DNA of 64,000 bases, taken from Flavobacteriales bacterium. Lineage in GTDB: Bacteria > Bacteroidota > Bacteroidia > Flavobacteriales_F > PHOS-HE28. The translations under genes and the position numbers were made by a program. The stretch's first letter is position 1; each line of letters starts with the position of its first letter. The stretch is from positions 107,945 to 171,944 of the forward strand of contig JAWKNI010000005.1 in NCBI GenBank assembly GCA_041391785.1. The letters are read 5' to 3'. Below are positions 18,268-61,185 of this stretch, one piece after another. Under the pieces are notes generated by a model that saw only the letters and a program-made list of their open reading frames with translations, did no database searches and was not told where the DNA came from.

Positions 18268-18289
18268 ACCTGACCTTATCCCGGGAAAA

Positions 18290-20312: not shown

Positions 20313-20333
20313 TCCCAACGCTTCTGCTGAAAG

Positions 20334-35900: not shown

Positions 35901-37052
35901 ACCTTCGAAGAAGTCCACCCCGATGGCCGGGGGTTGCGCGCCATAACCGATGCTCTGCCCTTGCTGGCACGTGGCGTCAACGTCCTGCCAGTTGTACGCG
36001 AAGCCGAGACCGCGTTGGATGTCGCAACCCACGAAGTCATCATCCGGGCAACCCAGATCGGCATCAACGAAGTGGCCGAAATAGGTGTTCGTCAGGGTCT
36101 GTGAACCCTGGTTGATGACCGTGTAGTTGTAGAAGGTCATGTTGTTGATCTCGTCGTTCGCATTGAACGAGAAGGCCTGAGCACGCACTTCCAGACCGAT
36201 CGGCTGCCCCAAGGTCTCCGTGTGGGCATCGCCTTTGTCATTGAAGATCCAGTAGATGTTGTTGTCACCGAAGAGGGATACAGGGTCCTCACGACGCTTG
36301 TTCTTGCAGTCCTCCACCGAGGTCTCGAACCCGTAGTCGGGATAATCACCGGAGAACGGGTCGTAGAATTCATCGCCATCCACGTCGATGAACGGGGCGA
36401 GGTGCAGGTCCTGTCCGGCATCCACGTTGCCGTTCGCCGGCCACTCCACGAAGGCTGGGGGCACGCTGTACCCGTCCGGGAAGATCTCATCGAGGTCGCA
36501 ATCCGGATCCTGCTGGCAGTTGTACCACTGGATGTGTGCTTCCGCCTGCGCCCGGCTGGTGGTGTAGAACTTGTCGTACTCTGCGCACACATCGGAAGTG
36601 ACGGACGCAAGACCATCATTGGTCAGGGGCCCGGGCCAGAAGTCGTTACCGTCCGCCCGATAGAGCACCGCCGCGATCTTCAACTGACCCGCACTGGAGA
36701 GGCCACCCATCCACAGCGAACCGGCATAGATGGCGTTCGGACCGCTGAAATCATCGGTCTTCGGCACTTCATAACCGGAGCGCGCGGTACCACCACGACG
36801 GGTCCATACGTTGCCACCGTTCTCGATCACCGCACGCACGTTGTTGAAGTTCAACTGCGTCACCTGCGATGCCGGTGAACAAGCGGCCGCCTTGGCAGCA
36901 CCCACCGCGCCGGAGTTGCCGGCCATGCCTGCCTGGCGTGGCGGTTCCTTGGCGTGGACGATGGCGCCCAGGGTCAACGCGAGGCACAGAGCGAAGGTTC
37001 TGGTAGGAATTGCGCTGTGTAAGCCTTTCATGATCTGCAGTCGTTTGTTCAT
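32940..37052 (-). CDS. Very large (1370 aa) secreted T9SS cargo protein with C-terminal sorting domain (type-B-like)
   Basis: Signal peptide; last ~100 aa VVPNPYYGFSGYE...FINLPQVCTISIYNVSGTLVRKF...LDWDLKNASNIPIAGGVYICHIDVPGVGEKVLKWFGALRP resembles T9SS CTD (xPNxxxG.., NLP..IY..G, W....P..GxY pattern of gliding-motility-type CTD). ATG overlaps upstream TBDR stop (ATGA). Confidence 0.7.
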   Translation of the reverse strand: MNKRLQIMKGLHSAIPTRTFALCLALTLGAIVHAKEPPRQAGMAGNSGAVGAAKAAACSPASQVTQLNFNNVRAVIENGGNVWTRRGGTARSGYEVPKTDDFSGPNAIYAGSLWMGGLSSAGQLKIAAVLYRADGNDFWPGPLTNDGLASVTSDVCAEYDKFYTTSRAQAEAHIQWYNCQQDPDCDLDEIFPDGYSVPPAFVEWPANGNVDAGQDLHLAPFIDVDGDEFYDPFSGDYPDYGFETSVEDCKNKRREDPVSLFGDNNIYWIFNDKGDAHTETLGQPIGLEVRAQAFSFNANDEINNMTFYNYTVINQGSQTLTNTYFGHFVDADLGCPDDDFVGCDIQRGLGFAYNWQDVDATCQQGQSIGYGAQPPAIGVDFFEGPYQDADGVDNPGPLTNAEVLDCIIARDQDGIPYKGLGIGYGDSVPDNERFGMRAFIYFNREGNANLTDPDNASHFYNYLQSVWKNNRPQTYGGNGYSEDPNAVRAYYMFPWDSDVVGWGTNCVTQADWRETTPTPALPDRRFVQSAGPFTLEPGAYNNVTVGVVFARASSGGAAASVGPLRVADDKAQALFDNCFKILDGPDAPDLVIQELDKELIIYLVNPQGSNNENEEYVEVDPIIPEQGPNGEMYDREYRFQGYKVYQLRDATVSVADLDDIESARLVYQGDLEDGVGQLINYDFNDQLGLTVPSEQVNGADAGVVHAIRITEDRFAQGNPALVNFKSYYYLAISYGYNNYAPFNPADGTGQAFPYVAGRKAAFGSIRSYVGIPHKPSPEQGGTAQNADFGDAMQITRLEGQGNGGLRLEMEQSTVDAILSGSPWRQDQLKYKVGSGPIEVRVVDPLAVPDAQFEVWFQDSITPGDLNDAYWYIVNLSTNDTVFSDRAIDLRYEQLLLKWGLSVRIGQVQYTATGSGGTGDIFTEPIGSGTLVHKDQSLAWFGGISDAEGVNPQNWIRSGIFEALDADVIYNDRVGKDNDQLYEAILGGTWAPWALVGQAPFQPSNTQQVSLSQSSVSPIAETPSIQLVITADKSKWTRAVVLEQEADVSLSEGGAAKLSLRASPSIDKNGRKSGSPGVNEDEATLGGAQPTGAGWFPGYAIDLETGERLNMAYGENSFWGGEIGRDMIWNPSDVLYTSNGDPVFGGCHWIYVFKNDRRLANADNRVPAYDECRFIHGLIQTTQPEPLRRLFRAVSWVGSAIRLPGTELLATDVTIVLNTKQPYKSYGDYAGTPQPIGPTRNNGLPLYTFGTAGYEVGTNDNAVADASLDIINVVPNPYYGFSGYEQTRLDNRVKFINLPQVCTISIYNVSGTLVRKFRKDNDLTYLDWDLKNASNIPIAGGVYICHIDVPGVGEKVLKWFGALRPLDLQNF

Positions 37053-40000
37053 CAGAAATCGAAACGGACACCAAGACGGATGGTGCGGGGTGCACCGTAG
37101 TTATCGGGAGTATTGATCTTCAGCGCGTACAGGTCGCGGAACGAATCGGGATCGATCTGGGAACGATCCGTGAGCTGGGCGAGGTAGCCATCGTTGTCCG
37201 GCGAACCCGTGTAGCGATACACCCCGGTGATGTTCTGTGTGTTGAAGACGTTCGTCACCAGGAGGTAGATGTTCAGGTTGGCGCTCTTGGCCTTGTCCCC
37301 TTCCTCACCACCGAAGCTCAGGGTGATGTCGCGGTCCAGCTGAAGGTCGGTGGTGAACTGCCAGGGTAGACGCGCACCGTTCAGCGTACCATCCAGGCGG
37401 TAGTTCGTGTTCTCCACGGCCTCGTTCACCACCTGGCTGCTGCGGCTGTACGGTGTTCCGCTTCCGAGGATGCCCACCACGTTCAGACCGGTGCGCTGGA
37501 AGATGGGCTTGCCGAAGAGCATCGGACCGTTGTAATCCTTGCCGGCACCATAGCGGAAGTCCATCGTCGCGGCGAAGCGGTGGCGCTGGTCGAAGTCGAG
37601 CGGCACGATGGTCCGCAGGTTGGCCTGGCCGGAGTTCACCAGGCTCACGCCGGTGTTCGGACCTGAACCGGTACCGTCGGCGAACTGCAGGGTGTAGCTC
37701 GCGCGCATCCACACGTTGCCGGTGCGACGGAGGTCGAAGGATGCGGTGAAGCCCTTCACCGTACCGAAGTCGATGTTCTCATAGGTGCGGTAGGAACGCG
37801 GCCATGCGTTGTTGCGGTTCACGATCTGGATCTGGTCGCGCAGTTCGCGGTAGAACGCGGAAAGCTTCAATGAAGAGGATTTGCTCAACACCTGCTGGAA
37901 GCCCAGTTCGTAGTCGATCGTCTTGGTGGGGCTCAGGTCCGGGTTGTTCAGGATGTTGCCCGTGGTGAAGTTGTAGGCATACTCCAACAGGTCACCCCGC
38001 GATTGCAGCGCGTTCGGACGCTGGGTGAGGACATCGTAGTGGGCGAAGAACACGGCCTCATCCGAGATCGGGAAGGAGAATGCGACGCGGGGCATCACGT
38101 TCACCACCGGGGTGTAATCCCGGAAGGCCTTGCGGCTCAATTCGGAACCCGGCAGGTCATCCGCATCGCCACCCTCGATCAGGTACGGGCGGATCTGGCC
38201 GGCCTCCTGCACGGAGTTGCCTCCATCATTCAACTCCACACCGGTGGGGCTGTACCAGATGTCGCCATCGCGGTAGCCCTTGATCGTGTTCGGTGAGCCG
38301 AAGTTGTCCACATACACTACGAAGTCATCGCCGATGTTGCCCGGGCGGTTCGCCAATTGTGCGGCGATGTCAGCATCGGGCACAGCCGATCCGGCGGTGT
38401 ACGCCTCCTGCCACAGGTACGGATCCGTGAGCACGTTCTGGTTCGCATCGTAGCGGTCCACACGTACCCCGACGTTGAAGATGATGTCGTCGAAGGCGAA
38501 CTTGTCCATCACATATCCAGCGATGTAGATCGGCTCGAACGGCGCCTGCAGACGGGTGAAGTTCCCCTTCTCGTCCTTGGCGGTGAAGAAGCTGTCGAAG
38601 CTGGGTTTGCTGGTAAGCTTGTTGCCCAGGTGGTCATAACCCACGTAGCTCACGAGGTTGTTCCCGTTGTTGATCAACTCATCCGGTGCGAACATGTCCA
38701 GGGAGAAAACACCCGGATCGAGGGCATCGATGTCGATGAAGTCCGCTCCGTTCGGATCCAGGCCGAGCGCTTCACGCAGGCTGCGATCGAACGTGGACTG
38801 GCGGGAGAGGTCGTTGTTCCGGGAGTAGAAGTAGAACGGCAGGGAGTTGGGGATCTGCACGATGTTCGTCACAGCGGTATCCTGCCACTCCAGGATGTGG
38901 GCATTGCCCAGTGCGCGCGCCCGCGTCCACAGGCCGATCGGGGCCAGGTCGTAGCGGCGCTGGGTGAGCTGTTCATATTCCACCCCGACCGAAACGGCGT
39001 GCTGGTTGATGTCCGCACTACCAAACGCCGTGAACCGGATCTGATCGTTCTGGCGCTTGCGGTACTCCGCCCCGTTGGGGTCATCGATGAAGCCGATGTT
39101 GTTCCAGATGTCGTAAAGACCCCGTGGACGCAGACCGTTCCAGATCACCCCACGGGACTGGGTCTCGGCGAAGTTCTGGTAAAAGCCGACGTAGTTCGGA
39201 TCGGAACCTTGCGGCGCACCGAAGAGTTCCTGGATGGGGAAGTTCTCCTGCGGGAAGGCGTTGAAGTAGAAGTTGTTGATCGAGGCGAGGTCGGGGTTCT
39301 GGGTACCCGGTGTGAAGGTGACGAGGGTGTCGCGCTCCCCGATCTGCACCCACCGCGAATCACGCAGTTCGAACCGCGGTGCACGGTAGGTGTTGAACCG
39401 ACCGACATAACCGTAGTCGAAGAAGTTGTCGCCGTGCACGAAATCCTCCACATTGCTTTGGTAGCGTGAGTAATCCAACTGCAGCGAGTAGAAGGCGTTC
39501 TGGATCGTGGAGCGCTTCTCCTCCTCCTCGGTACGGTTGAGGAAGCGTTGGGTGAACTTCACGAAGCCCCTCCAGGTGGTCTCCTTCACCCGGTAGTTGT
39601 TCTCCGCGTTCAACAGCGCGTTCTTCCGGTTGTAGTCCTGGCGGTTACCGTAATCGAATGACCCACCCACGGAGAGGTTGATGGTGGGCGTGGTGGTGAT
39701 GTCCAACTTGCCGGATGCCAGGTAGCTGGTCTTACCTGCGTTCTGGCGGGTCTTCAAGGTCTCCGTGTCGCCGGTGCGCAGGAATTCGCTGCTGTACCCA
39801 AGGGTGAAATCATTTGCACCGCTGGGGAGCAGGCGGGCGGGGTCGGAAAGAATGGCATCCCGCACCTCGGGTCGCACGCGGATGTCCCCGATGTAGGACG
39901 GGGCATCATCGACGACATCGGTGAACTGACCGGAAACGAAGAACCCGATCAGGGGCTTGTCCTTGTTGCCAAGGCTGTCCTTCTTGAAGAGGATAGGACC

Positions 40001-40813
40001 CGAGAGGCTGGCTTCCACCTGATTGAAGGCGAACTTGTCCAGACCGACGATGTCCGTGATGTCCTTGCCGACCTTGTAGCCGGAGGTAAGGTATTCGACG
40101 CCTCCGAAGAAATTGCGGCTGGGACCACGCGTGGTGATGTTCACCAGACCACCGGTCACGTCACCGTAGTTCGCAGGCACACCACCGGTGATCACCTGCA
40201 CCTCCTCGATCGCGCTCTTGGGCAGGCCCGTGCCCGCACCGGCCGGCACTTTCACACCATCGATATAGTAATAGGTGTTCTCCGTACGTGCACCGCGAAT
40301 GCTGATGCCACCATCGGTACCGGCCGTGCTGGCGCCGGCAACGGTCGTCGCAATGCTGGCCGCCGAACGACCGGGCATCTTGGCGATGTCCTCCCGGGTC
40401 ACGGTACCACCGGATGCACCACCATCGCGCTGGATCAGCGGAACATTGTACTGCACCACTTCGAACTCCTTCAGTTCGATACCGGAATTGAGGCCGATGT
40501 TGAGGAAGGTGATGGTGTTGCTGTTGACGACCACCCCTTGTTGCTTGGACGGCTGGTACCCGGTGTATGCGACGATCACGTCATAGGTACCCGGTTCGAT
40601 CGGTTTGATGAAGTATTCCCCGTCGAAGTCCGTGGACCCGCCGGTCACCTGAACGCCATTGCGTTCGATCACGACACTTACGAACGGAAGAGGTTCACTG
40701 GTCTTCTTATCGGTGACCTTGCCCTTGAGGCTGCCGGAACCCGTTTGGGCACTTGCGGCGAGCACACAGCAGATGGAAAGGGCGATTGTAGAGAATAGTC
40801 TTCTCAACATCAA
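37052..40813 (-). CDS. Oversized TonB-dependent receptor (1253 aa) with N-terminal CarboxypepD_reg domain
   Basis: Signal peptide, GSLKGKVTDKKTSEPLPFVSVVIERNG (CarboxypepD_reg), plug domain (TVTREDIAKMPGRS...ISIRGARTENTYYYIDGV), C-terminal ...RTIRLGVRFDF. Confidence 0.85.
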   Translation of the reverse strand: MMLRRLFSTIALSICCVLAASAQTGSGSLKGKVTDKKTSEPLPFVSVVIERNGVQVTGGSTDFDGEYFIKPIEPGTYDVIVAYTGYQPSKQQGVVVNSNTITFLNIGLNSGIELKEFEVVQYNVPLIQRDGGASGGTVTREDIAKMPGRSAASIATTVAGASTAGTDGGISIRGARTENTYYYIDGVKVPAGAGTGLPKSAIEEVQVITGGVPANYGDVTGGLVNITTRGPSRNFFGGVEYLTSGYKVGKDITDIVGLDKFAFNQVEASLSGPILFKKDSLGNKDKPLIGFFVSGQFTDVVDDAPSYIGDIRVRPEVRDAILSDPARLLPSGANDFTLGYSSEFLRTGDTETLKTRQNAGKTSYLASGKLDITTTPTINLSVGGSFDYGNRQDYNRKNALLNAENNYRVKETTWRGFVKFTQRFLNRTEEEEKRSTIQNAFYSLQLDYSRYQSNVEDFVHGDNFFDYGYVGRFNTYRAPRFELRDSRWVQIGERDTLVTFTPGTQNPDLASINNFYFNAFPQENFPIQELFGAPQGSDPNYVGFYQNFAETQSRGVIWNGLRPRGLYDIWNNIGFIDDPNGAEYRKRQNDQIRFTAFGSADINQHAVSVGVEYEQLTQRRYDLAPIGLWTRARALGNAHILEWQDTAVTNIVQIPNSLPFYFYSRNNDLSRQSTFDRSLREALGLDPNGADFIDIDALDPGVFSLDMFAPDELINNGNNLVSYVGYDHLGNKLTSKPSFDSFFTAKDEKGNFTRLQAPFEPIYIAGYVMDKFAFDDIIFNVGVRVDRYDANQNVLTDPYLWQEAYTAGSAVPDADIAAQLANRPGNIGDDFVVYVDNFGSPNTIKGYRDGDIWYSPTGVELNDGGNSVQEAGQIRPYLIEGGDADDLPGSELSRKAFRDYTPVVNVMPRVAFSFPISDEAVFFAHYDVLTQRPNALQSRGDLLEYAYNFTTGNILNNPDLSPTKTIDYELGFQQVLSKSSSLKLSAFYRELRDQIQIVNRNNAWPRSYRTYENIDFGTVKGFTASFDLRRTGNVWMRASYTLQFADGTGSGPNTGVSLVNSGQANLRTIVPLDFDQRHRFAATMDFRYGAGKDYNGPMLFGKPIFQRTGLNVVGILGSGTPYSRSSQVVNEAVENTNYRLDGTLNGARLPWQFTTDLQLDRDITLSFGGEEGDKAKSANLNIYLLVTNVFNTQNITGVYRYTGSPDNDGYLAQLTDRSQIDPDSFRDLYALKINTPDNYGAPRTIRLGVRFDF

Positions 40814-50071: not shown

Positions 50072-50676
50072 GGCTTCAAACTGTTCGTAAGCACGGATAC
50101 GATGTGGGTGCGGCGTTGCTCAAGGAATGCCTGCCGGTCCTTCTTCCCCATCCCGAGTGCGATGCCCACGGCAGGCAGCATGGAGAAGGTGAAGGCGCAG
50201 AGCGAGACCATGTCAAGCAGGAACTGGATACCGCTCTTGCGTTCCGGCGGCAGCTTCCGTTGCATCAGGTCAGGTTCGATGTGCGCAGCGACCTTGAGCA
50301 GTATGTCCCGCAACGGTGAATTGGCGATCATGTTCGGATCGCGCTGTACTTCGAACAGCACGAAGGCCGGTAATCCCGGGGTCTCCTCCAGCAGGTCGAA
50401 GTACCGCGCCACCATCGACCTCACCTTCTTCTCGAGCTTCCCCTTGCTCTCCAGAATGTGGAGCAGGTCAGTGTACAAGCGCCCTGCCTGGTACTGGAAC
50501 ACCTCCCTGAAGATCGCATCCTTGGTCTTGAAGTAGTAGTGCAGCAATCCCTTGTTCACCCCCGCGCGTTCCGCCAATTCACGCATGTTCACGCCGTCCT
50601 GACCGTGCTTCACGAACAGCTCTCGTGCCGCCAGAACGATGCGATCCCGTGTCCCACTATCCTGGATCTTACCCAT
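50068..50676 (-). CDS. TetR/AcrR-family transcriptional regulator
   Basis: RDRIVLAARELFVKHGQDGVNMRELAERAGVNKGLLHYYFKTKDAIF HTH; start ATG 50676. Confidence 0.8.
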   Translation of the reverse strand: MGKIQDSGTRDRIVLAARELFVKHGQDGVNMRELAERAGVNKGLLHYYFKTKDAIFREVFQYQAGRLYTDLLHILESKGKLEKKVRSMVARYFDLLEETPGLPAFVLFEVQRDPNMIANSPLRDILLKVAAHIEPDLMQRKLPPERKSGIQFLLDMVSLCAFTFSMLPAVGIALGMGKKDRQAFLEQRRTHIVSVLTNSLKP

Positions 50677-50808
50677 TTGGGTAACAAAGGAACACAGATC
50701 TACCCATACGTCCAAATACCTCGCGGACGATCCATTGGATCGATCGTATGGACCAGTGGAACACCTCGCCTACCTTCACCGCCCATCAACGAACACCGCC
50801 CGGTCCGC

Positions 50809-52770
50809 ATGCGCAAGGTCCTGTACCGCCTGCTACGCCTGCTCGCCTGCATCGCCCCGCTCTCATGCACGGCCCAGGCGGATTCGCTGTTCCGGGTGTG
50901 GAACGATCCGGGATCACCGGACAGTTCCCGCATCAGGGCCATTCAACTGCTTGCCTGGAAGGCCGTTTTCGAAGTTCCGGACAGCGGCATCAGCCTGGCG
51001 CAGAAGCAGCTCGAGCTGGCTGAACGGACCAAGGACCGCCTGGCGATCTATGAGTCCCACACCACCATGGCGGTCGGGAGTAGCTTGAAAAGCGACTTCC
51101 CAACGGCTCTTGGCCATTTCGACGTGTGCCTGCGCACGGCCCGTTCCATGGGCGATCTGAAGCGCGAAGCGAACACCTACAGCAACATGAGCAACGTATT
51201 CAGGCACATGGGCGATCTGCCGATGGCCTTGGAACAGTTGCAACGCAGCCTCCGCATCGATCAGGATCTGGGGAACAAGGAGGGATTGGCCGGCACGTTC
51301 AACAACATCGGTAACATCCATACGGAGCTTGGTGATCTGCCCGCAGCGCTTGAACACTATACCAAAAGCGCGATGCTGTATGATGCGTTGGACCAGACCA
51401 AGGGCAGGGCACAGGCGTTGTTGAACCTCGGTGTGACACACCTGGAAATGGGTGAACGGGAGAAGGCCCTTGCCGAGTTCCTCCAGAGCCTCGGCCTGTA
51501 CCGGACGATGGGCCGGAAGATGGAAGTGGGCATGGCATTGAACAATCTTGGGCGGACCTATTCACGACTTGGCCGGATCGCCGAGGCCAGGCACTCCCTG
51601 GACTCGGCGCTCGTCCTGTTCACGGAACTGGACAGCAAGCGCCAGATGGCGCGCAGCCTGTATTACCTGGGTGACCTCGACCTGCAGGAAGGGCACTCCC
51701 GAGAGGCCATCGTGCACTGCAAACGTGGGCTCGGCATCGCACGATCGGCAGGCCTGGCCCTTCAGCGCAAGGAATGCAGCGAATGCCTGATGGTGGCCTA
51801 CGAGCAGGTGAATGACCTGGGGAACGCCTTTCGTGCGCAAAAGGAATTCATGCAGGTGGGCGACTCCCTGGATGCGTTGAACAACAGCGAGGAAGTGATG
51901 CGGTTGGAGATGCAGCACAGTTTCAGAGAAGAACGCATCGCGGACAGCCTGAAGAGTGAACGCAGGCGATTCGCCGATCAGCTGGCCTATGACCAACAGC
52001 TCGGCAAGGAGCGTGAACAGCGCAACATCTTCCTGTACTCCGGCCTCGGGGTACTGCTCCTCGCTGGGAGCCTTTGGGGGAGGCTGAGGCACACCCATCG
52101 GTCACGGATCGCCATCCAACAGGAGAAGGACCGGAGTGATGCGCTGCTGCATAACATCCTGCCGGAGGAGGTGGCCCTGGAGCTGCGCCAGAAAGGTCAT
52201 GCGGAGGCGAAGCACTTCGAGGAGGTCACGATCCTGTTCTCCGATTTCAACGGATTCACACAGGTGAGCGAGCGGCTATCACCTGCCGAGCTCGTAGAGG
52301 AACTGAACGTGTATTTCAAGGCGTTCGATGCGATCATTGAAGCCCAGGGCATTGAGAAGATCAAGACGATCGGTGATGCGTACATGGCCGCCGGCGGTGT
52401 ACCCGCGGGAGGGGACGATGCCACCGGCCGTACCGTATGCGCCGCGTTGGACATGCAAGCTTTCGTGGTGGCGCGTTGGAACGAGCGCGACGCACAAGGG
52501 TTGCCGGCGTTCAGGATGAGGATCGGCATCCATACCGGACCCGTAGTGGCAGGCATCGTTGGCACCAAGAAGTTCCAGTATGACATCTGGGGGGATACCG
52601 TGAACATCGCCAGCCGCATGGAAAGCAGCGGTGAGATCGGCACCGTGAACGTCAGCGAGGAGACCTACGTGCGTCTTCGGAACGACAGCCGGTTCGCGTT
52701 CGTTCCACGCGGTCAGGTAAGCGCCAAAGGGAAAGGCGATCTTCCGATGTACTTCGTGCGCTGGGCGTGA
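50809..52770 (+). CDS. Class III adenylate/guanylate cyclase with N-terminal TPR sensor array and one TM helix
   Basis: Signal peptide, ~8 TPR-like repeats, TM, then ...FSDFNGFT...IKTIGDAYMAAGG...IGIHTGPVVAGIVG...YDIWGDTVNIASRMES. Confidence 0.85.
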   Translation: MRKVLYRLLRLLACIAPLSCTAQADSLFRVWNDPGSPDSSRIRAIQLLAWKAVFEVPDSGISLAQKQLELAERTKDRLAIYESHTTMAVGSSLKSDFPTALGHFDVCLRTARSMGDLKREANTYSNMSNVFRHMGDLPMALEQLQRSLRIDQDLGNKEGLAGTFNNIGNIHTELGDLPAALEHYTKSAMLYDALDQTKGRAQALLNLGVTHLEMGEREKALAEFLQSLGLYRTMGRKMEVGMALNNLGRTYSRLGRIAEARHSLDSALVLFTELDSKRQMARSLYYLGDLDLQEGHSREAIVHCKRGLGIARSAGLALQRKECSECLMVAYEQVNDLGNAFRAQKEFMQVGDSLDALNNSEEVMRLEMQHSFREERIADSLKSERRRFADQLAYDQQLGKEREQRNIFLYSGLGVLLLAGSLWGRLRHTHRSRIAIQQEKDRSDALLHNILPEEVALELRQKGHAEAKHFEEVTILFSDFNGFTQVSERLSPAELVEELNVYFKAFDAIIEAQGIEKIKTIGDAYMAAGGVPAGGDDATGRTVCAALDMQAFVVARWNERDAQGLPAFRMRIGIHTGPVVAGIVGTKKFQYDIWGDTVNIASRMESSGEIGTVNVSEETYVRLRNDSRFAFVPRGQVSAKGKGDLPMYFVRWA

Positions 52771-52780
52771 TCGGCCGGTC

Positions 52781-54832
52781 TCAGGGACGAAGCACCAGAC
52801 GTTGGGTGTAGGCGCGGTCACCTGCGGTGATGTTCACCATGTACATGCCTGCGGCGAGGTCGCCGTTCAGGTCCACCACGGTGTTCACGAAACCGTCCAG
52901 TGCGGCGATCGTGCGCGCGATCATGCGCTTGCCGCTCAGGTCGTAGATGTCCATGCTCACCGTGTTCACGCCTTCCTCAATTCCGCTCATGCTGATGTAC
53001 AGCTGGTCGCCATTGTTCGGGTTCGGGTACATGTTGAGCGTGGCATCGGTCGAGGCGTCCATAGCGCTGTTCTGCTGGCCACCGTTCACCGCGTTGTTGA
53101 TGGTGACGGTGCAGGTCTCCCCTGCCGTGCACCACACACCGCCTTTGAATGCCTGTACCGTCACGTCATAGTCCTCTCCCGGGTTCAGTGGAGGTGCTAC
53201 CCCGGCGCCCCAGCCGAGGGTGAGGTAGTAGGTGGTGACCTCGCGTACGATCGGAGTTTCCAGTTCCGCGTTGCTTATGGTGAAGCGGTACTTCGTTGCA
53301 CCGGAGATCGGCCGCGCATAGAGGCTGTTGATGCTCTGGTTGTTGAAGTCGCGGAACACGTTGCAGCTGATGAAGGGGTTGCCCGGCACGTCCATCAACT
53401 TGGTCGGAGGGCACAGTGCCAGGGCGTCATCACGCATGAAGCGGCAGGCCGGTCCCCAGTTCTTGGGCACGTTGTTCACCACGGCACGCACACGCACGTT
53501 CAGCGGCACCTGGTCCGGGATCCAGTTGGCGGCGGCCCAGTTGTTCACCTGCATGTGGCAGGTGCGTGCGCCGCCCACGTTGCCGAAGCCATCGGTCACG
53601 TTGTGGCGGCGCTGGCGGATGAAGCTGTAGCCACCGTTGGGATCGTAGAACCAGAAGTCGTAGCCGGTGGTGGCGCTTTGCACGGCATTGCTGCCGTTGG
53701 GGATCCACACTGCGGCCACATCCGCATCCTCGTTCACCACGATGAACTCGCCTTTTTTCCAGAAGTACTTGTCGCAGCTGGTGTAGAGCAGATCGTTCGG
53801 TCCGACGGGCAGGCAGAACCCTTGCTCCGCTGCGATCGCACTCTCCGCTCCGGAAAGGAAGTTGTTGCGATCGTCGATGATCCGTGCCCCATTCGACCGC
53901 AGGACGTAACCGCCACCTGTGATCCCATTTCCGCTGGCATCCATGACCCGGAGGCGATAGCAGCCCTCGGGCAGGCAGCAGGTCTCAAGGAGGGTACCTT
54001 CGGCAGGGTATCCGCCGCCGCCAGTGCATACCACCGAACCGGTGCCGGTGTCGATGACCTCCCAGGTGGTCTCCCCTGGTGATGCATCGGTCTCAAGCTC
54101 CAGTTCCAATGGCTCGGTGCAGGCCTCATCCACCGATGTCGTAAGGCCCTTGCTGAACCCACCAACGAGTGCCTCTCCTTCGGCGGAGATGAGGACATTG
54201 CCGTTGGCCATCACGTTGAATCGGGCCGCGGATCCACCCCCTCGCCCGGCATCGTTCGCCTTGAAGGTGAAACAGGCATCGGACCCAAGCGGTACATCCA
54301 CCACGACCACAGCGTTCTCTTCCACATAAGGGCCACCATCGGCCACCGTTTCATTCAAACTGTTGCGGATCTCCCAGGTCAGGTCACCGGGGTCGCTGTC
54401 CGTGCGCACCTCAACGGTGACGGTCGTGTTCCCTGATGCGGCAGGGACCTGATCGACAGCAGCCGTGATGATGTTGCCTTCGGCCACCTCGTCCGGAACG
54501 GTATTCACACTGATGATGCGGAACTCCAGTTCATCACCCGGCTCGATCTGCACGGCCGGAAGCGCTGGGGTGCGGGCTTCCCCTTGCAATGCCGGTACCG
54601 CCAGCTGCCAGTCGAACGAGTTCACCATGAGCCCGTTCTTCCATGTATCCACCACGCAACCGCTCATGGCCGCGGATCCCTGATTGCGGATCTTCACGAC
54701 AGGGACCACTTCGCCACCGCACGGGTACTTCAGCCCGACATATTCCTCGAATCTGGCGTCGTACGTGGCCTGTGCACTCAATGCCGTACCAACGGTGAGC
54801 AGCAACACGGAAAGGCTGGTCCTTGCGATCAT
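52781..54832 (-). CDS. T9SS type-A C-terminal sorting domain protein (secreted cargo), directly downstream of TPP-regulated TBDR
   Basis: Signal peptide; repeated D.DPG(D/E).TWE(I/V) blocks; C-terminus ...MYPNPNNGDQLYISMSG...MDIYDLSGKRMIARTIAALDG...GMYMVNITAGDRAYTQRLVLRP. Alternative start ATG 54877. Confidence 0.65.
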   Translation of the reverse strand: MIARTSLSVLLLTVGTALSAQATYDARFEEYVGLKYPCGGEVVPVVKIRNQGSAAMSGCVVDTWKNGLMVNSFDWQLAVPALQGEARTPALPAVQIEPGDELEFRIISVNTVPDEVAEGNIITAAVDQVPAASGNTTVTVEVRTDSDPGDLTWEIRNSLNETVADGGPYVEENAVVVVDVPLGSDACFTFKANDAGRGGGSAARFNVMANGNVLISAEGEALVGGFSKGLTTSVDEACTEPLELELETDASPGETTWEVIDTGTGSVVCTGGGGYPAEGTLLETCCLPEGCYRLRVMDASGNGITGGGYVLRSNGARIIDDRNNFLSGAESAIAAEQGFCLPVGPNDLLYTSCDKYFWKKGEFIVVNEDADVAAVWIPNGSNAVQSATTGYDFWFYDPNGGYSFIRQRRHNVTDGFGNVGGARTCHMQVNNWAAANWIPDQVPLNVRVRAVVNNVPKNWGPACRFMRDDALALCPPTKLMDVPGNPFISCNVFRDFNNQSINSLYARPISGATKYRFTISNAELETPIVREVTTYYLTLGWGAGVAPPLNPGEDYDVTVQAFKGGVWCTAGETCTVTINNAVNGGQQNSAMDASTDATLNMYPNPNNGDQLYISMSGIEEGVNTVSMDIYDLSGKRMIARTIAALDGFVNTVVDLNGDLAAGMYMVNITAGDRAYTQRLVLRP

Positions 54833-54908
54833 GGGGAGGGGATTCAGGATACCAAAACTACCCTCCAACCCTTTCATGCCGCAATAGAACCTTCGTTACA
54901 ACCCCAGG

Positions 54909-57290
54909 TCAGAAGCGCAGCGCTAGCGCCCCCAACACGTTCAACGGTGCTTGTGGATACAACCCCACCAGTTCCTGCCTGCTACCGCCAAGCAGGTAGC
55001 TGTAGCTCCAAGCATTGCTCTCGTACAGTTCATTCAGCACGTTGCGCACCGTAAGGTTGAACGCGACGTGCGGTATCCGGAAGAAAGCGGACAGATCCAC
55101 ATTCAATCGCAGGTCGTTGACCAGGTACGGATCCAGAGCCCGGTCGGCACTGCCACTGTTGTCGATGTACTGGCGACCCACATACTTCGTGATGAGCGTA
55201 AGGTCGGCGTTCCCTTTCCCTCTCCGCTGCCAGAAACGATAGCTCAACTCGCTTGCGGCGATCTGCTCCGGACTGAATGCGATCGGGGTGGAGGTGTAGG
55301 TGAACGCCTGCTGCCCACCGGTATCCCAGTCATCGACGAATTCCGTGAAGTCCTTGATGCGATCCCTGCTGAACGTGGCATTGCCTTTCCAGCGCAAACG
55401 CCGGGTGACCTGCGCCGCCCACGTGATCTCCACACCGGAACGATAGCTCTTCGCAACATTGGTACGGAGTGCAGCGCCCACATCATTGAGCTCTCCGGTC
55501 AGCACCAATTGGTCCGTGTAGTCCATGTAGTAGCCGTTCACGCCGAAAGCGAACCGCGCACCACGTCGTTCGTATCCCAGTTCATGATCCGTAAGCCGCT
55601 CGCTCGTGGGGCGGCTCATGGGCGTGGTCTCCTCGAAGTCGTCCCGGTTCGGTTCACGGTTCGCCACGGCAACGCTTCCGTACACGCGTCCACCTTCGTG
55701 CACGCGCCAACTCAGCCCTCCCTTCGGGTTGAAAAAGCTGAACGCGTTGTATTGGTCACGGACGTTCAACGCATCATCGAACCCGAGCAGCTCATGCTCC
55801 ACTGCACGCACCTGCACGTCGCCGTACGCTGTGAGGCGATCGCTCAACGTGTAATTCAATTTGGCGAACACGTTCGCATCCATCTTGTTCGCATCATTGT
55901 CGTAGTACCGTTGATCATTGCCATATGGCCCGGAGAAGCGCGCCCAGATCACCTCACCGAAATGTGCACCGGAATAATTGGAGTAGCTCCCGCCCAGGAT
56001 GAATTCGTGCTTTCCGAATACATGCATCAACGAGGCATTCACCCCGAGCAGGGTGTTGTCCAGCCACCGTCGGGTGATGAAGTCGTTCATGACGGCGGTA
56101 TCCGTACCCAGGACCACTGGACCAGGGAAGTAATCCAAGGTCTCTTCATCGCTCCTGAAATTCTCATAGTATCCTTTGCCATCCACCCGATAACCTGTCA
56201 GGCTCAATGTGGTGGAAGCACTCAGCTTCTCCTCGAAGAGCAATTGATAGTGGGTCTGATCGTAGTTGTCCACCTCATTGGCATAGGTGTATCCGTTATA
56301 GGTGCGCGCCGTATCGATCACCTCCCTGGGCACACCGCCCCATGCCTGGTAGGTCACCTCGCTTCCGCGGAAGGTGATGAACCGTAACGAACGCCTTCTT
56401 CCGATCCATGCCCCCTGCAGGAAATAGCTCTTCAGGTCCGCGGTCGCCCGGTCTATGTAGCCATCGCTCGTGATGGAGGAAAGGCGCATGTCGAGGCTGA
56501 AGCGATCCTCGATCACACCGGTACCTGCACTCACGCTGTAGCGTTGCGTGTTGTACGAACCCCCACTGATCCCGATGTTGGCCCATGGCTCGGGTCTCAC
56601 ACTGGTGGTGCGCAGGTTCACCGTTGCGCCGAATGCCGCAGGCCCGTTCGTGCTGGTGCCCACACCGCGTTGCACCTCGATATCCTCCGCGCTCGATGCA
56701 AGGTCCGGCAGGTTCACCAGGAATGCGCCCTGGCTTTCCGGATCGTTGAAGGGTACACCATTCAGCGTGATGTTGGTACGCGTGGCATCCGTCCCACGAA
56801 TGCGCATGCCGGTGTACCCGATACCGGTGCCCGCGTCGCTCGTGGTGACCACGCTTGGCTGCAGGTCGAGCAGATAGGGCAGATCGACGCCGGTGTTCAT
56901 CCGTGCGATGTCATCCTTGGTGACCATCGACCGCGCGAACGGTGCGGTCCCTACGCGCAACGCATGGACCTCGGCGGCACGCATCATAACCACATCCGTG
57001 CGCATGTGGAACACAAGATCCATGGCCCCGGCAAGCGCAATGGTCGTGTCGATCCCGACATGGCCCAGGCTGCTGAGGCGCATCCGGTACTCGCCCTCTT
57101 CGATGCCGCTCAGGATGAACCGGCCTTCAGCATCGGTGACCGCGCCGAACGCATGATCATCACCGAGAATGACATTGACAGCAAGCATGGGGGTGCTGTG
57201 CTCGTCCAGTACTTGTCCGGTCAGGCGCACCTGTCCGAATGCCGCAGCAAGTTGGAAAAACGCGACGAACGCGATCGATGTTCTCTGCAT
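54909..57290 (-). CDS. TonB-dependent receptor (CarboxypepD_reg + plug + barrel), thiamine/TPP-regulated outer-membrane transporter
   Basis: MQRTSIAFVAFFQLAAAFG signal, RLTGQVLDEHSTPMLAVNVIL, plug ...MVTKDDIARMNTGVDLPYLL, C-term ...LGALALRF; preceded by TPP riboswitch. Confidence 0.85.
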   Translation of the reverse strand: MQRTSIAFVAFFQLAAAFGQVRLTGQVLDEHSTPMLAVNVILGDDHAFGAVTDAEGRFILSGIEEGEYRMRLSSLGHVGIDTTIALAGAMDLVFHMRTDVVMMRAAEVHALRVGTAPFARSMVTKDDIARMNTGVDLPYLLDLQPSVVTTSDAGTGIGYTGMRIRGTDATRTNITLNGVPFNDPESQGAFLVNLPDLASSAEDIEVQRGVGTSTNGPAAFGATVNLRTTSVRPEPWANIGISGGSYNTQRYSVSAGTGVIEDRFSLDMRLSSITSDGYIDRATADLKSYFLQGAWIGRRRSLRFITFRGSEVTYQAWGGVPREVIDTARTYNGYTYANEVDNYDQTHYQLLFEEKLSASTTLSLTGYRVDGKGYYENFRSDEETLDYFPGPVVLGTDTAVMNDFITRRWLDNTLLGVNASLMHVFGKHEFILGGSYSNYSGAHFGEVIWARFSGPYGNDQRYYDNDANKMDANVFAKLNYTLSDRLTAYGDVQVRAVEHELLGFDDALNVRDQYNAFSFFNPKGGLSWRVHEGGRVYGSVAVANREPNRDDFEETTPMSRPTSERLTDHELGYERRGARFAFGVNGYYMDYTDQLVLTGELNDVGAALRTNVAKSYRSGVEITWAAQVTRRLRWKGNATFSRDRIKDFTEFVDDWDTGGQQAFTYTSTPIAFSPEQIAASELSYRFWQRRGKGNADLTLITKYVGRQYIDNSGSADRALDPYLVNDLRLNVDLSAFFRIPHVAFNLTVRNVLNELYESNAWSYSYLLGGSRQELVGLYPQAPLNVLGALALRF

Positions 57291-57334
57291 GGTACTCCGT
57301 ATCGATGTCGTTGCACGGAGGTACCCACCCACTG

Positions 57335-57420
57335 GCGGCACTGTTCCCTTCGCAGCATTACCTGCGCAGGTTCATCGGGTGTGATCTCAGCCCATGCGGT
57401 AGGGCACCCCGTTGCTTGAC
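57335..57420 (-). promoter_or_regulatory. TPP (thiamine pyrophosphate) riboswitch, THI element
   Basis: Minus strand: caacGGGGTGCCCtaccgcatgggCTGAGAtcACACCCgatgAACCTGcgcaGGTAATGCtgcGaAGGGAAc matches THI-box consensus (GGGGTGCCC...CTGAGA...ACCC...ACCTGATCNGGNTAATGCC...AGGGA); ~45 nt upstream of TBDR ATG. Confidence 0.85.
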
Positions 57421-57481
57421 GGAACAAATGTAGTGCGATGGTCTTCGGATGCATGCACCCCTCATTCGGGATGCGCGCACT

Positions 57482-58057
57482 TCAACCTTCGATCACGCGG
57501 ACCTGCGCGATGGCCGCAATGGCCTGTCGCAGGCGAAGTTCATGCGCGCCTTCGAGCACGATGAATGGTTTCTCCAGCGTCCTCAATGTCGACCTGTACA
57601 CCTCGAACAGCCGTTCACGGTCATTGGGGTTCTCGCGCAATGGATCGGGCTCCCACGGCATGTCCGGGCGGCAAAGCAGCCACAGATCGTATGGTCGCTC
57701 CATGGTCTGCTGTACGACCCAAGGATCGCTGCGTCCGAATTTCTCCTCACCCCAGATCCGTATCGTGATCAGGTCCGTATCACAACACACGAGCCCACCT
57801 CCATCCCGTGCGACATTGTTCACCACGCGATCCTCCTCCCGCACCTGCAACCCCGCGATCGATCGCAACTCGGCCTCGTCGTAGCCAGCGTACGTCCCCG
57901 GTCGCTCCGCGAAATACGTCCGGGCCATCTCCGCAACAAGACCTGCATCATGGTGCACGGCCAATGCCTTCGCAAGGGTGGTCTTGCCGCTGCTCTCCGG
58001 TCCGGTGATCACGATCTTCCTTACCACGAACGCAAAGGTGTGCCGATCGGCCGTCAT
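57482..58057 (-). CDS. AAA_28/NadR-C-terminal-like ATPase (ribosylnicotinamide-kinase-like nucleoside/vitamin kinase)
   Basis: P-loop ITGPESSGKTTLAKALA, ...VCCDTDL...DLWLLCRPDMPWEPDPLRENP pattern as in NadR kinase domain. Confidence 0.55.
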   Translation of the reverse strand: MTADRHTFAFVVRKIVITGPESSGKTTLAKALAVHHDAGLVAEMARTYFAERPGTYAGYDEAELRSIAGLQVREEDRVVNNVARDGGGLVCCDTDLITIRIWGEEKFGRSDPWVVQQTMERPYDLWLLCRPDMPWEPDPLRENPNDRERLFEVYRSTLRTLEKPFIVLEGAHELRLRQAIAAIAQVRVIEG

Positions 58058-58143
58058 CGTAACTTTCCATCACTGCATAAGCAGCGATACGCAATGCCGG
58101 GTCGTCCTCGATACAGGACCGCATACTTGTTGAACCCAAGACC

Positions 58144-59967
58144 ATGAACATGGAACGAACCTTACTACTTTCCTTCGGCGCTGCGATCGCATTCAATGCA
58201 CTCGCACAACTCCCACCGGATCGACCAGCCCCGCTCGCCGCGCACATGCAGGAGGTGAATGCTGAGTGGGACCACCACCTCGGCGCGTTGGATGCGACGA
58301 ACGGGCCGATCCGATTCAACAGTGAAGCCGAGCGCATCGCGATGCACCTGCACCTCGTGCGCAAGGAACTTTCCACCAAAGCCGGTGAAGGGATATCGGC
58401 CGAACAGCTTGCCCGGCGCAACACGCTCCTGGAGGCACTGGAACGGTATGCGGACAACGGCACCTTCCCACAGAACCATGTCCTGCCCTATCGCAATCCG
58501 ATCTTCATCGACCCCAATGGGACCGCTTGTGCGGTGGGTCATTTGATGATCACCAGCGGTGCGGGGGAACTGGCAGCACGTATCGACGCGGACATGGAGA
58601 CCGCCTATATCCGGGAAATGAAATGGCCGGAGATCGGTGCGTGGGCCGTCTCACACGGATTCACCGGGGATGAACTGGCCTGGATACAGCCGGGGTATAC
58701 ACCACCGATCCCTTGGGTATCGCTTGGAGGAGGAACGAACGGACCTGTGCTTGTGGTGAAGGAACTGGACAACGGAGAAGTGATGATCGCCGGATCCTTC
58801 ACGGAGGCCGGCGGCGTTGCCGTGAACAACGTGGCGCTGTGGGGCGCCAATGGCTATACTGCAATGGGGGCCGGCTTCAACGGAACGGCGACCTGTGCGC
58901 TGGTGGACGGAGACGATGTGTACGTCGGTGGAAGCTTCCTGAACGGCGTCAGCGACCTGGCCCGTTGGGATGGAGCGCAATGGACGTTCAGCACGGTGTT
59001 CGACAGCAAATCGCCCAAGATCAACGCGCTGTGCATGCACAATGGAACCTTGTATGCGGCCGGTGAACTGGTCGGCTTCGCCGGTGTGGATGACATTGTG
59101 CAACGCTTCACCGGATCCACCTGGGAACCGGTGGGTGGCATCTTCAACAACACCATCCTTGCCCTTGCCTCGCACGATGGGTCCCTTGTTGCAGGCGGTC
59201 TTTTCACCGGTCCTGACGATGTGACCGACCCCTTGTTCGACCACGTCGCCGTGCTGGAGGGCGATTCCTGGGCACAATTGGGCGATGGTCTGGATGCCCC
59301 TGTGCGGACGTTGCTGGATGTGAACGGTACGCTTTACGCCGGCGGCGACCTCTATGCGAACATCGTGGTGACCTTCGGACTGGCGCGGTTGGGATCCGGC
59401 TCGATGACGTGGGAGAACGTGCTGCCCAACCATGCGGATTACATGCCCACCGGTCTCGGGCCCACCTGGATCGGATCCCTTGTGTCGCACGGCGGTGCGC
59501 TGTATGTGGGCGGCTCATTCTTCTACGAGCAGTTCCTGGTGTATGGACGCAATATCGCGCGCTTCGATGGGACCTTGGACGGGCTGGAATCCTTCGGTTC
59601 TTTCTTCGGTGATGTGCGCTCGATGGCCATGAACGAGGATGCATTGGTGGCCGGAGGCGAATTCAGCGAGGGCATACCGTACGTTGCGACGACATCCCTG
59701 AGCACAGGGGTCGACGATCATGAATGGTCGGCAATGTCGCTCTCACCGAACCCGGCCACGCACGTGCTCACCATTGTACCGGCCACGCCGCTCACATCCG
59801 GAGCGAGCCTGGAGGTGTTCGATGACCTGGGCCGCAGGGTAAGCACGCCCATGAGCCGCAGCGGCACGAGCGTCCAGTTGGATGTGCGCCAGCTCCCGGC
59901 CGGCCCGTACGTCGTTCGCATGCGCGATGGACGGCAGCAGGCCACTGGCCGTTTCGTACGTCAATAA
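58144..59967 (+). CDS. T9SS type-A C-terminal sorting domain protein (secreted cargo), 607 aa
   Basis: Signal peptide; repetitive GG..Y.GG.F blocks; C-terminus ...LSPNPATHVLTIVPA...LEVFDDLGRRV...LPAGPYVVRMRDGRQQATGRFVRQ. Confidence 0.65.
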   Translation: MNMERTLLLSFGAAIAFNALAQLPPDRPAPLAAHMQEVNAEWDHHLGALDATNGPIRFNSEAERIAMHLHLVRKELSTKAGEGISAEQLARRNTLLEALERYADNGTFPQNHVLPYRNPIFIDPNGTACAVGHLMITSGAGELAARIDADMETAYIREMKWPEIGAWAVSHGFTGDELAWIQPGYTPPIPWVSLGGGTNGPVLVVKELDNGEVMIAGSFTEAGGVAVNNVALWGANGYTAMGAGFNGTATCALVDGDDVYVGGSFLNGVSDLARWDGAQWTFSTVFDSKSPKINALCMHNGTLYAAGELVGFAGVDDIVQRFTGSTWEPVGGIFNNTILALASHDGSLVAGGLFTGPDDVTDPLFDHVAVLEGDSWAQLGDGLDAPVRTLLDVNGTLYAGGDLYANIVVTFGLARLGSGSMTWENVLPNHADYMPTGLGPTWIGSLVSHGGALYVGGSFFYEQFLVYGRNIARFDGTLDGLESFGSFFGDVRSMAMNEDALVAGGEFSEGIPYVATTSLSTGVDDHEWSAMSLSPNPATHVLTIVPATPLTSGASLEVFDDLGRRVSTPMSRSGTSVQLDVRQLPAGPYVVRMRDGRQQATGRFVRQ

Positions 59968-59992: not shown

Positions 59993-60586
59993 TCATTCTT
60001 GGGCGGGGCGTTGCCTTTGTCGCCTCCAGCGCAAGAAGCCCACCACCGCCAGCACGATGTAGACCACCATCAGGAGCACATAGCCATTGAAGCCGATGAG
60101 GTGGTTGTAGAAGACGGCCACAATGTCGCCCACGGTCCAGTAGATCCAATTCTCCAACACTTTGCGGCTCATCAGCCAGGTGGCGATCAGCGCGAATGCC
60201 GTGATGAAGGCTTCCATCCACAGGTGTTCACCCTCAAGGTCCATGGCCTTCATCGCCCCGAAGAGTACTGCCGTTGCGACCCCTCCCACTACGATGGCCA
60301 GGGCGTGCTCGCCAGATCCCATCGTGCGGATGCGTTCCGCTACCTCGACCCTGCCCCAGGTCCACCATCCATACAGGCCCATGGCCGCGTAGAATCCGTT
60401 CAGCGCACCCATCAACCAGGCCTGTGCCCCTGCGTACAGCACCACCCCGATCATCGAGGCCACGAAACCGAACAACCAACCCGCGCGCACTTCACGACCG
60501 ATGAGGTAGGTGAAGAGGATGTTGCCGGCCACGGAGGTCCATTCCAGACCGATGGCCAGTGCGGGCGACAAGGCGACCTCCATCAC
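59993..60586 (-). CDS. PnuC-family (nicotinamide riboside / vitamin) transporter
   Basis: ...LFGFVASMIGVVLYAGAQAW...ENWIYWTVGDIVAVFYNHLIGFNGYVLLMVVY matches PnuC fold signature (W..GD..); substrate unassigned (NR/riboflavin/thiamine). Confidence 0.7.
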   Translation of the reverse strand: MMEVALSPALAIGLEWTSVAGNILFTYLIGREVRAGWLFGFVASMIGVVLYAGAQAWLMGALNGFYAAMGLYGWWTWGRVEVAERIRTMGSGEHALAIVVGGVATAVLFGAMKAMDLEGEHLWMEAFITAFALIATWLMSRKVLENWIYWTVGDIVAVFYNHLIGFNGYVLLMVVYIVLAVVGFLRWRRQRQRPAQE

Positions 60587-61185
60587 ATCCCGCAGTTGCA
60601 GGGCTGCGAGAAATAGATCTTCGCCCGTGGCAGCAATTCCTGGATCCGGTCCATCTCCGGCTGGTCGAATTGGATCGCCCGCAGGTCCATGTACTTGAGC
60701 GCCTCCATGCCTTCGATCTCCTCAGGGAATTCCGCAAGGTCGTTGCTCCAGAGGTCCAGCGACACCAGTTCCTGAAGGCGCCCCATGCAGGGCGGCAGGC
60801 CGGTCAGTCGGTTGCGGCTCATGTCCAGCCGCTTCAGGTGCACCAATTCACAAATGGCCACCGGGAAGTCCGTCAATCGGTTGCGCGCCAACCGCAGTTC
60901 CTGGAGGTTCGTGAGCGCACCCAACCACGCCGGCACCTCCTTCAACTTGTTGCCAGCAAGGTCCAGTGCATTGAGGTTCGTAAGCTGCTTCAGGCTTTCG
61001 GGCAGCACCTTCATGCGGCTACCGCTCAGGTCGAGACGATATACCTGCTCCGGATGCTCCAGTGCCTTGGACAGGTCGCGGTAGGTGCGCATGGAGTCCA
61101 ATGCCACCGCATCGAGCAATTGGGCCATCGCCGGTCGCAGGTGAACGACCAGCAGGGAGAGTATCAGTATGCGCAGCTTCATCAC
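60583..61185 (-). CDS. Secreted leucine-rich-repeat (LRR) protein
   Basis: Signal peptide then ~6 LxxLxLxxNxL repeats (LDLSGSRMKVLPESLKQLTNLNALDLAGNKLKEVP...). Confidence 0.7.
   Translation of the reverse strand: MMKLRILILSLLVVHLRPAMAQLLDAVALDSMRTYRDLSKALEHPEQVYRLDLSGSRMKVLPESLKQLTNLNALDLAGNKLKEVPAWLGALTNLQELRLARNRLTDFPVAICELVHLKRLDMSRNRLTGLPPCMGRLQELVSLDLWSNDLAEFPEEIEGMEALKYMDLRAIQFDQPEMDRIQELLPRAKIYFSQPCNCGM

Follow-up and report, generated by a model that had tools for sequence, protein, structure and literature searches.

When a gene for a secreted surface protein stands directly behind a riboswitch-controlled receptor gene, does it belong to the same regulon, or is it merely a neighbour? 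This question is raised by a 64,000-nt stretch of a Flavobacteriales genome (hereafter the window), in which a gene for a TonB-dependent receptor (TBDR) is preceded by a thiamine pyrophosphate (TPP) riboswitch and followed on the same strand by a gene for a cargo protein of the type IX secretion system (T9SS). A first-pass annotation of this DNA had placed the cargo gene in the TPP regulon and proposed that its product binds thiamine or caps the receptor. We favour, with a probability of roughly 0.6, a reading in which the locus consists of two adjacent, separately controlled units, one being a TPP switch with its OMthi-type TBDR and the other an independently promoted T9SS surface protein, brought together by inherited synteny. 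The riboswitch, the TBDR and the cargo of the first-pass annotation are all real; what it left unstated is that they lie on the minus strand, as do all features of the receptor/cargo locus. The first unit comprises the following features:

57425 to 57432, minus strand: -7 promoter box TACATTTG of the riboswitch-TBDR transcript, of the Bacteroidota type, directly 5' of the aptamer (read directly)
57345 to 57411, minus strand: TPP riboswitch aptamer of a variant form, lacking P3a and weak in P1 (RF00059 match)
57291 to 57344, minus strand: riboswitch expression platform (leader alignment and consensus fold)
54909 to 57290, minus strand: OMthi-type TBDR, 793 aa (Pfam)

The TBDR lies in an open reading frame that spans 54909-57341(-) and ends with a stop codon at 54909-54911; the listing of open reading frames together with Pfam puts its true ATG at 57290, and the aptamer ends 54 nt 5' of this codon. 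An Rfam scan of the whole window at gathering thresholds reported tRNA only and no TPP element. A permissive E-value scan retrieved the RF00059 match at 57345-57411(-) with 39.6 bits (E 3e-6), below the family's gathering score of 54.3 bits, and orthologous aptamers score 38.8-41.2 bits. In the Rfam alignment the window aptamer lacks the optional P3a stem and begins at model position 11, so that P1 is not aligned; P1 is also missing from the consensus fold, and its pairs are flagged as mismatched in two relatives (L002 and L003).

Conservation of the element was examined in 80 TBDR loci gathered from species-representative genomes, with further loci reached via the cargo protein. A regular-expression search placed the core motif of the P3a-less aptamer ahead of the TBDR ortholog at 21 of 24 close loci and ahead of distant TBDR homologs at 29 of 59. 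Across 22 aligned leaders the ligand-contact core (CUGAGA; ACCC..GAACCUG; GGUAAUGC; AGGGA) forms invariant columns, and the stems show compensatory pairs, both in P2 (CG in 17 leaders, UA in 4, AU in 1) and in P4/P5 (CG in 14 and GC in 8 at one position, AU in 20 and GC in 2 at another). The P3 hairpin varies in sequence and is retained as a hairpin across orthologs, and a TAnnTTyG box occupies the matching position in the orthologous TBDR leaders. Judged by this conservation and covariation, the TPP riboswitch of the window is genuine; the first-pass annotation, which had called its THI element "unambiguous", was right about its existence and too firm about an element that scores below the Rfam gathering threshold. 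P3a-less TPP aptamers of 38-41 bits, with a weak or unclear P1, form a whole clade of their own (>40 loci; for example L002 4418-4514 and L003 4408-4500), and since these scores fall under the gathering threshold, standard annotation would miss them. The Rfam threshold thus misses a set of P3a-less aptamers, and thiamine regulons are under-annotated in these genomes.

Downstream of the aptamer, the leader alignment and consensus fold place two hairpins, the first variable, the second conserved and directly before the ATG. Use of the Shine-Dalgarno (SD) sequence is generally weak in Bacteroidota; here the conserved hairpin pairs an anti-SD strand, CCUCCGU (57321-57315), with ACGGAG (57300-57295), and no T-run was found 3' of it. 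The 5' strand of the aptamer, GUCUUGCAnCGGGGUG, is complementary to the anti-SD strand, and the two alternative folds lie 2.6 kcal/mol apart (-51.4 kcal/mol for the bound-like fold and -48.8 for the one that leaves the start site free). A transcription-terminator riboswitch was considered and rejected, because a T-run is missing and because every ortholog has its anti-SD/SD hairpin right against the ATG. Since the platform hairpin sequesters the start region and there is no terminator, the riboswitch is predicted to act on translation of the TBDR, and a translational switch would exert no direct control over the downstream cistron. On sequence grounds, the window element is a translational TPP switch of the thiM type. 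Transport riboswitches in B. thetaiotaomicron act on translation as well, leaving mRNA levels unchanged (bioRxiv 10.1101/867226).

The mechanism that we propose for this unit starts from a promoter with its -7 box at 57432-57425, which would drive a leader that folds into the P3a-less TPP aptamer. With TPP bound, the aptamer would keep its own 5' strand, leaving the anti-SD CCUCCGU to pair with the GGAG-containing segment before the ATG, and this pairing would stop translation initiation of the OMthi-type thiamine receptor. Without TPP, GUCUUGCAnCGGGGUG would instead pair with the anti-SD strand, and the start region would be freed. The architecture of the switch is shown by sequence, covariation and folding, and a response to TPP as the ligand is what its family would predict.

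The receptor itself carries CarbopepD_reg_2, Plug (PF07715) and TonB barrel (PF00593) domains, all above the Pfam cut-offs, and has no specific name in NCBIfam. Its 573 relatives include orthologs at 53-77% identity in Flavobacteriales metagenome-assembled genomes (MAGs) and homologs at 38-44% identity in Flavobacteriaceae, Bacteroides and Flavisolibacter, many of them with TPP elements. Gathering-level TPP elements accompany homologs of 40-44% identity in Bacteroides (L058, L067) and Flavisolibacter, and one is also found at L032. These above-threshold elements, together with the conserved and covarying aptamer, bear out the earlier claim that a TPP riboswitch controls an OMthi-type TBDR, and sequence kinship supports tying the receptor to the B. 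thetaiotaomicron family. OMthi was described in B. thetaiotaomicron, where genetic evidence for thiamine transport exists only for BT2390 (PMC5613172); by analogy, the window TBDR is predicted to import thiamine. With the riboswitch-TBDR unit of the window, the OMthi system is now also seen in an uncultured, GC-rich Flavobacteriales clade of wastewater and freshwater.

The second unit consists of the cargo gene and the elements directly before it:

54882 to 54898, minus strand: cargo cis element TAACGAAGGTTCTATTG, a palindrome of the TAAC-N4-GTTA type abutting the -33 TTG; candidate operator or activator site
54853 to 54860, minus strand: -7 promoter box TAGTTTTG of the cargo gene (read directly)
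52781 to 54832, minus strand: T9SS type-A cargo, 683 aa (signal peptide aa 1-20)
54772 to 54428, minus strand: cargo head domain A (CARDB-like), aa 21-135
54427 to 54113, minus strand: cargo domain B1, aa 136-240
54112 to 53828, minus strand: cargo domain B2, aa 241-335
53827 to 53033, minus strand: cargo stalk module common to paralogs, aa 336-600
53032 to 52784, minus strand: cargo C-terminal domain (CTD), aa 601-683

The cargo open reading frame covers 52781-54877(-). Its first ATG (54877) falls upstream of the predicted transcript, and the second ATG (54832, giving 683 aa) is therefore taken as the start, a choice that also follows the orthologs and the position of the promoter; the spacer between TBDR and cargo is then 76 nt. 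A scan of this spacer found no terminator-like site between the TBDR stop and the cargo gene; the first-pass annotation had noted no clean terminator there, only a weak hairpin.

Upstream of the cargo ATG, all of the first six loci share a block made up of TAAC-N4-GTT, TATTG, about 20 nt, TAnnTTTG, another 20 nt or so, and the ATG; two of these six (L001 and L004) have no TBDR. In the window, 21 nt separate the -33 TTG from the -7 box and 20 nt separate that box from the ATG; in orthologs the -7 box is kept as TAGyTTkG or TAnnTTTG. The cis element has a single match in the 64 kb (0.03 expected), precedes 51 of 62 genes of the cargo's family at a fixed distance, including tandem second genes and TBDR-less copies, and in other loci is found almost only before such genes. 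In many members of the family the TAAC-N4-GTTA palindrome directly before the -33 TTG is perfect; a search of the window for another instance of the perfect form, TAACNNNNGTTA, returned none. A sigma-70 promoter scan returned nothing relevant, the sigma-70 model not being applicable to Bacteroidota. The cargo gene would thus be transcribed mainly from a predicted promoter of its own (-33 TTG, -7 TAGTTTTG), and the palindrome ahead of it is the probable site of a dedicated transcription factor; from its symmetry and placement it looks like the target of a dimeric regulator. A match to the element pattern, TAACNNNNGTTNTNNTG, was also seen in a Bacteroidales MAG (L029 700-716(+)), where it precedes the aptamer of a TPP-controlled TBDR homolog by about 100 nt, and may be due to chance.

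The protein encoded by this unit begins with a putative Sec signal peptide, read from the sequence (MIARTSLSVLLLTVGTALSAQ, followed by ATYD), whose N-terminal helix has a low predicted local distance difference test (pLDDT) score. It ends in a type-A CTD (aa 601-681 of 683) that scores above the cut-offs of TIGR04183 (44.8 bits against 23) and PF18962 (36.7 against 27), and two copies of a "TDxDPGxTTWE" domain occupy aa 136-240 and 241-335, all of which agrees with the first-pass description of signal peptide, D.DPG.TWE blocks and CTD. The 600 aa outside the CTD have no match in Pfam or NCBIfam, Por_Secre_tail being the only Pfam match. The C-terminal 65% or so is a module of many multi-domain T9SS proteins in Flavobacteriales MAGs, with several per genome and quite different N-termini. 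The whole 683-aa protein was therefore rejected as the conserved unit, and the recurring unit is the head plus the CTD. This family-specific N-terminal head consists of domain A (aa 21-135) and domain B (aa 136-240), followed by the second B copy, and many relatives are short forms of about 320 aa with signal peptide, head and CTD only.

An exhaustive HMMER scan found about 40 close representatives of the head. Within the family, domain A is unusually conserved, with about 25 residues invariant across members that are 38-67% identical. More distant A+B didomains are interior modules of unrelated T9SS cargos, namely Omp28 proteins, redoxins, S8 subtilases and trypsin-like peptidases. AlphaFold models are all-beta (pLDDT 86.5 for the full length and 92.3 for the head). 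Foldseek comparison of the full-length model with the PDB retrieved only generic strings of Ig and FN3 domains (contactin, titin, complement, alpha-2-macroglobulin), which are uninformative on function, and structure comparison of the predicted models showed no resemblance to BtuG or a known vitamin binder, only CARDB/Ig-like beta-sandwiches. The product is most likely a cell-surface protein of the adhesin or coat type, anchored to A-type lipopolysaccharide (A-LPS). A PorP/SprF gene adjoins the cargo ortholog in L004. In two loci (L008 9644-10301 and L022 8392-9630) the head genes are broken over several frames, either as pseudogenes or through assembly frameshifts; if the breaks are real, they point to relaxed selection on the head gene even behind a TBDR.

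How faithfully do the two units travel together? Two flanking genes enter this comparison:

50458 to 52770, plus strand: tetratricopeptide-repeat (TPR) adenylate/guanylate cyclase gene, convergent to the cargo gene (Pfam)
57482 to 58057, minus strand: AAA_28 (NadR-type kinase-like) gene (Pfam and NCBIfam)

Among the close TBDR loci with readable downstream sequence (n=19), one or more head genes follow the receptor in 9 and none in 10, and at the distant TBDR loci a head gene was found in 0 of 58. The pairing, which the first-pass annotation had asked orthologous loci to keep, is thus absent from 10 of 19 close and from all distant loci. On the TBDR tree the head-negative loci are scattered, implying at least 4 separate losses or separations, and in three of them the genes after the TBDR are unrelated to the head. 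Suspected divergent heads behind the TBDR in L019 and L026 were rejected, as the genes encode a luciferase-like monooxygenase and a methyltransferase. Viewed from the cargo side, a scan of metagenome contigs with the head alone yielded 41 loci, with a TBDR upstream in 28; five loci with enough upstream sequence have none (L101, L106, L108, L113, L120), and the same is true of L001 and L004-6. No TPP element was found in the TBDR-less head loci, even at E <= 1, unlike the split thiamine operons of gut Bacteroidetes, which keep or duplicate the riboswitch (PMC5613172).

In the GTDB loci, head and cyclase either both occur or are both lacking, and the AAA_28-TPP-TBDR segment is always intact, so that the TPR-cyclase is at least as constant a neighbour of the head as the TBDR. 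In the locus with the closest TBDR (L009, 77% identity) the receptor abuts PcrB, and since PcrB lies just beyond the cyclase in L003, head and cyclase are missing from L009 as a unit. We see the position of the cargo gene behind the TBDR as probable ancestral synteny in one Flavobacteriales clade, with the order AAA_28, TPP element, TBDR, head gene(s), cyclase. Such adjacency would not require an operon, the TBDR presumably working without a head gene in many relatives and the head persisting without a TBDR. The earlier assignment of the cargo gene to the TPP regulon does not fit the translational mode of the switch, the separate promoter block that recurs at TBDR-less sites, or the lack of a TPP element where the genes are separated.

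Several points weigh against two separate units. In about 28 of 33 informative metagenome loci (~80%), and for 3 of 5 cargo orthologs, the head gene is the next one after the TPP-TBDR and has the same orientation, and tandem head duplicates stay behind the TBDR. There is no intrinsic terminator between the genes, so read-through transcription is possible, and the cargo promoter is a prediction from consensus and conservation. Rho-dependent polarity arising from an untranslated TBDR could lower any such read-through. Finally, conservation as strong as that of domain A points to a specific partner or ligand that is itself conserved; the TBDR and thiamine are possible ones.

The alternative that survives best, though we consider it unlikely, is that the head gene is paired functionally with the convergent TPR-adenylate cyclase and that the TBDR is irrelevant to the circuit. 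A regulator responsive to cyclic AMP (cAMP), of the CRP/FNR type, or some other dimeric regulator, would bind the palindrome and switch the surface protein on; this mechanism is as improbable as the pairing itself. Besides the joint presence and absence in GTDB loci, which extends to TBDR-less loci, and the joint loss in L009, the short distance between the two stop codons (10-63 nt across loci, 10 nt in the window) speaks for such a pair. The palindrome, which is particular to head genes and adjoins the -33 element on its upstream side, with its centre about 42-45 nt upstream of the predicted cargo start site, also occupies a position like that of a class-II activator site. However, descent alone can keep convergent neighbours together within a narrow clade, L004-6 and L105 have head genes without a cyclase, no regulator gene was identified, and no second palindrome copy appeared in the window. 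The palindrome is, moreover, no more than a candidate site for a CRP/FNR-type protein. The shared movement of head and cyclase, taken with the palindrome, hints at a regulatory or functional pair that is possibly cAMP-dependent.

Loci in which head and TPR-cyclase were gained, lost or relocated together, independently of the TBDR, are L001, L003, L007, L008, L011, L014, L016-L018, L022 and L088-L126. L105 and L108 lie about 14 kb apart on one contig (ERZ795056 NODE-104) and are two head loci of one genome: L105 has a long-form head directly behind a TPP-TBDR and no cyclase, and L108 a short-form head beside a cyclase, preceded by a 1926-aa LamG/Ig T9SS protein with the same stalk module and CTD. 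An uncharacterised T9SS family with a conserved head, a dedicated palindromic element and a persistent linkage to a TPR-adenylate cyclase is in itself of modest interest.

Somewhat more doubtful still is the idea closest to the first-pass proposal, that the T9SS protein assists the thiamine TBDR at the cell surface, in capture, as a lid or in hand-off, much as BtuG serves BtuB. Co-expression would come about by read-through from the riboswitch-controlled promoter, with the cargo promoter adding a basal level only, a route to which we give equally little credence. In its favour are the same-strand adjacency across a spacer of 50-170 nt with no terminator, the TBDR upstream of some 80% of informative head loci, the duplicated head genes that remain behind the receptor, the L105 receptor that retains its head gene though the cyclase is elsewhere, and the strong conservation of domain A; a precedent exists in P. 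gingivalis, where the surface-exposed accessory IhtB is encoded with the TBDR IhtA (PMC12094164). Against it stand the translational riboswitch, with no direct hold on the downstream cistron, the independent and conserved promoter/operator of the cargo gene, the absence of the pairing at 10/19 close and 58/58 distant TBDR loci, together with no fewer than 4 independent separations, and a head gene that follows the cyclase and not the TBDR. When the gene was split off, no TPP element was duplicated with it, in contrast to the Bacteroidetes operons mentioned above (PMC5613172). The generic CARDB/Ig-like fold offers nothing of the pocket type, the A+B didomain is also built into the interior of unrelated cargos, and T9SS cargos have a high base rate: the window encodes about 5-6 proteins with a type-A CTD, about 1 gene in 10, so that a T9SS gene beside a TBDR is not rare by chance. 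The fold and the association with the cyclase rather than the TBDR also tell against the proposed thiamine-binding or capping role.

It is a long shot that the CARDB-like head is a clade-specific extracellular partner of OMthi, capturing thiamine or a precursor or docking on the receptor loops. If this were true, neither a T9SS-anchored vitamin-capture factor nor an accessory protein of OMthi would have been known before it, and a head that serves the thiamine receptor would change the view of vitamin capture at the Bacteroidota surface. Under the reading of two separate units, the locus carries a caution, namely that same-strand adjacency without a terminator does not make an operon; T9SS cargos are common enough here to lie beside TBDRs often.

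Very improbable is the last alternative, a decayed, non-functional aptamer and a TBDR outside thiamine regulation: the scores of 38.8-41.2 bits against 54.3, the absent P3a and a P1 that is not clear in the consensus fold would fit it, but in upwards of 20 species-level loci the core that contacts the ligand is unchanged and the stems covary, the same short variant is found before about half of the more distant homologs of the TBDR, the expression platform is conserved, and P3a is optional in the Rfam model.

Further genes around the locus deserve mention. Nearly every TBDR locus of the clade has the AAA_28 gene right before the riboswitch-TBDR unit, outside riboswitch control, and the NadR ribosylnicotinamide-kinase-like AAA_28 product could be a vitamin-salvage kinase that replaces tnr3. 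In three relatives (L002, L003, L007) a PnuC-like gene (NMN_transporter, possibly PnuT) lies about 3.5 kb further upstream, the two genes there occupying positions ~480-1100 and ~3765-4390; no PnuC-like gene was found at the corresponding position of the window, which holds a gene for a leucine-rich-repeat protein (60583-61185, minus strand). Near TBDR homologs in Lutibacter and Tenacibaculum contigs, the Flavo-1 small RNA (RF01705) matches above its gathering score (L034 5363-5459(+), about 500 nt upstream of the TBDR, and L051 3344-3504(-)). The window also encodes three further type-A CTD proteins within 17191-21584(+), at 17191-18264, 18477-20309 and 20505-21584, and a Rax2-like propeller protein with a CTD at 58081-59964(+), divergent upstream of AAA_28.

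The first-pass annotation had also stated that both TBDRs of the window are followed by a T9SS-secreted protein. The second TBDR does exist, at 37052-40813(-), and is unusually long (1253 aa); its 1370-aa neighbour (32940-37052, minus strand) has no Pfam family and a CTD-like C-terminus below threshold (16.7-20.4 bits against 23), so this part of the claim is weakly supported. The stop of the second TBDR overlaps the start of the gene for the 1370-aa protein, and from this overlap the second pair is a better operon candidate than the TPP-TBDR and its cargo.

The two units can finally be set beside known systems. BtuG/BtuB and the P. gingivalis pair IhtB/IhtA resemble the locus in that a TBDR gene for a vitamin or metal has a gene for a surface-exposed protein beside it in the same orientation. 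BtuG, however, is a B12-capturing beta-propeller lipoprotein, whereas the window protein is a T9SS cargo of Ig-like domains; in contrast to both pairs, it has a predicted promoter of its own, inconsistent co-occurrence with the TBDR and no recognised ligand-binding fold.

The riboswitch is closest to the E. coli thiM-type TPP riboswitch (RF00059), with which it shares a core followed by an anti-SD/SD helix, an alternative pairing that would free the start, and the lack of a terminator; it differs in having no P3a, in a weak or unclear P1 and in its Bacteroidota host. The TBDR resembles OMthi of the BT2390 type, being a Plug and barrel receptor with a TPP riboswitch directly upstream, and is 40% identical to Bacteroides homologs that bear above-threshold TPP elements; its riboswitch lies near the start codon and is predicted to be translational, like the B. 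thetaiotaomicron transport riboswitches (10.1101/867226). Unlike OMthi, it stands outside any OMthi-pnuT-tnr3 operon, with AAA_28 upstream and the T9SS cargo downstream, and its aptamer lacks P3a and falls under the Rfam gathering score.

The cargo protein, for its part, follows the plan of generic Flavobacteriia type-A T9SS cargos built as CARDB/Ig/FN3 strings, with a Sec signal peptide, beads of beta-sandwiches and a TIGR04183 CTD. Its C-terminal module is common to paralogs with other heads, and the A+B didomain occurs also in Omp28, redoxin and peptidase cargos. What sets it apart from these generic cargos is an A+B head that belongs to no Pfam family and has an unusually conserved domain A, a cis element dedicated to the head family, and a fixed position between the TBDR and the TPR-cyclase.

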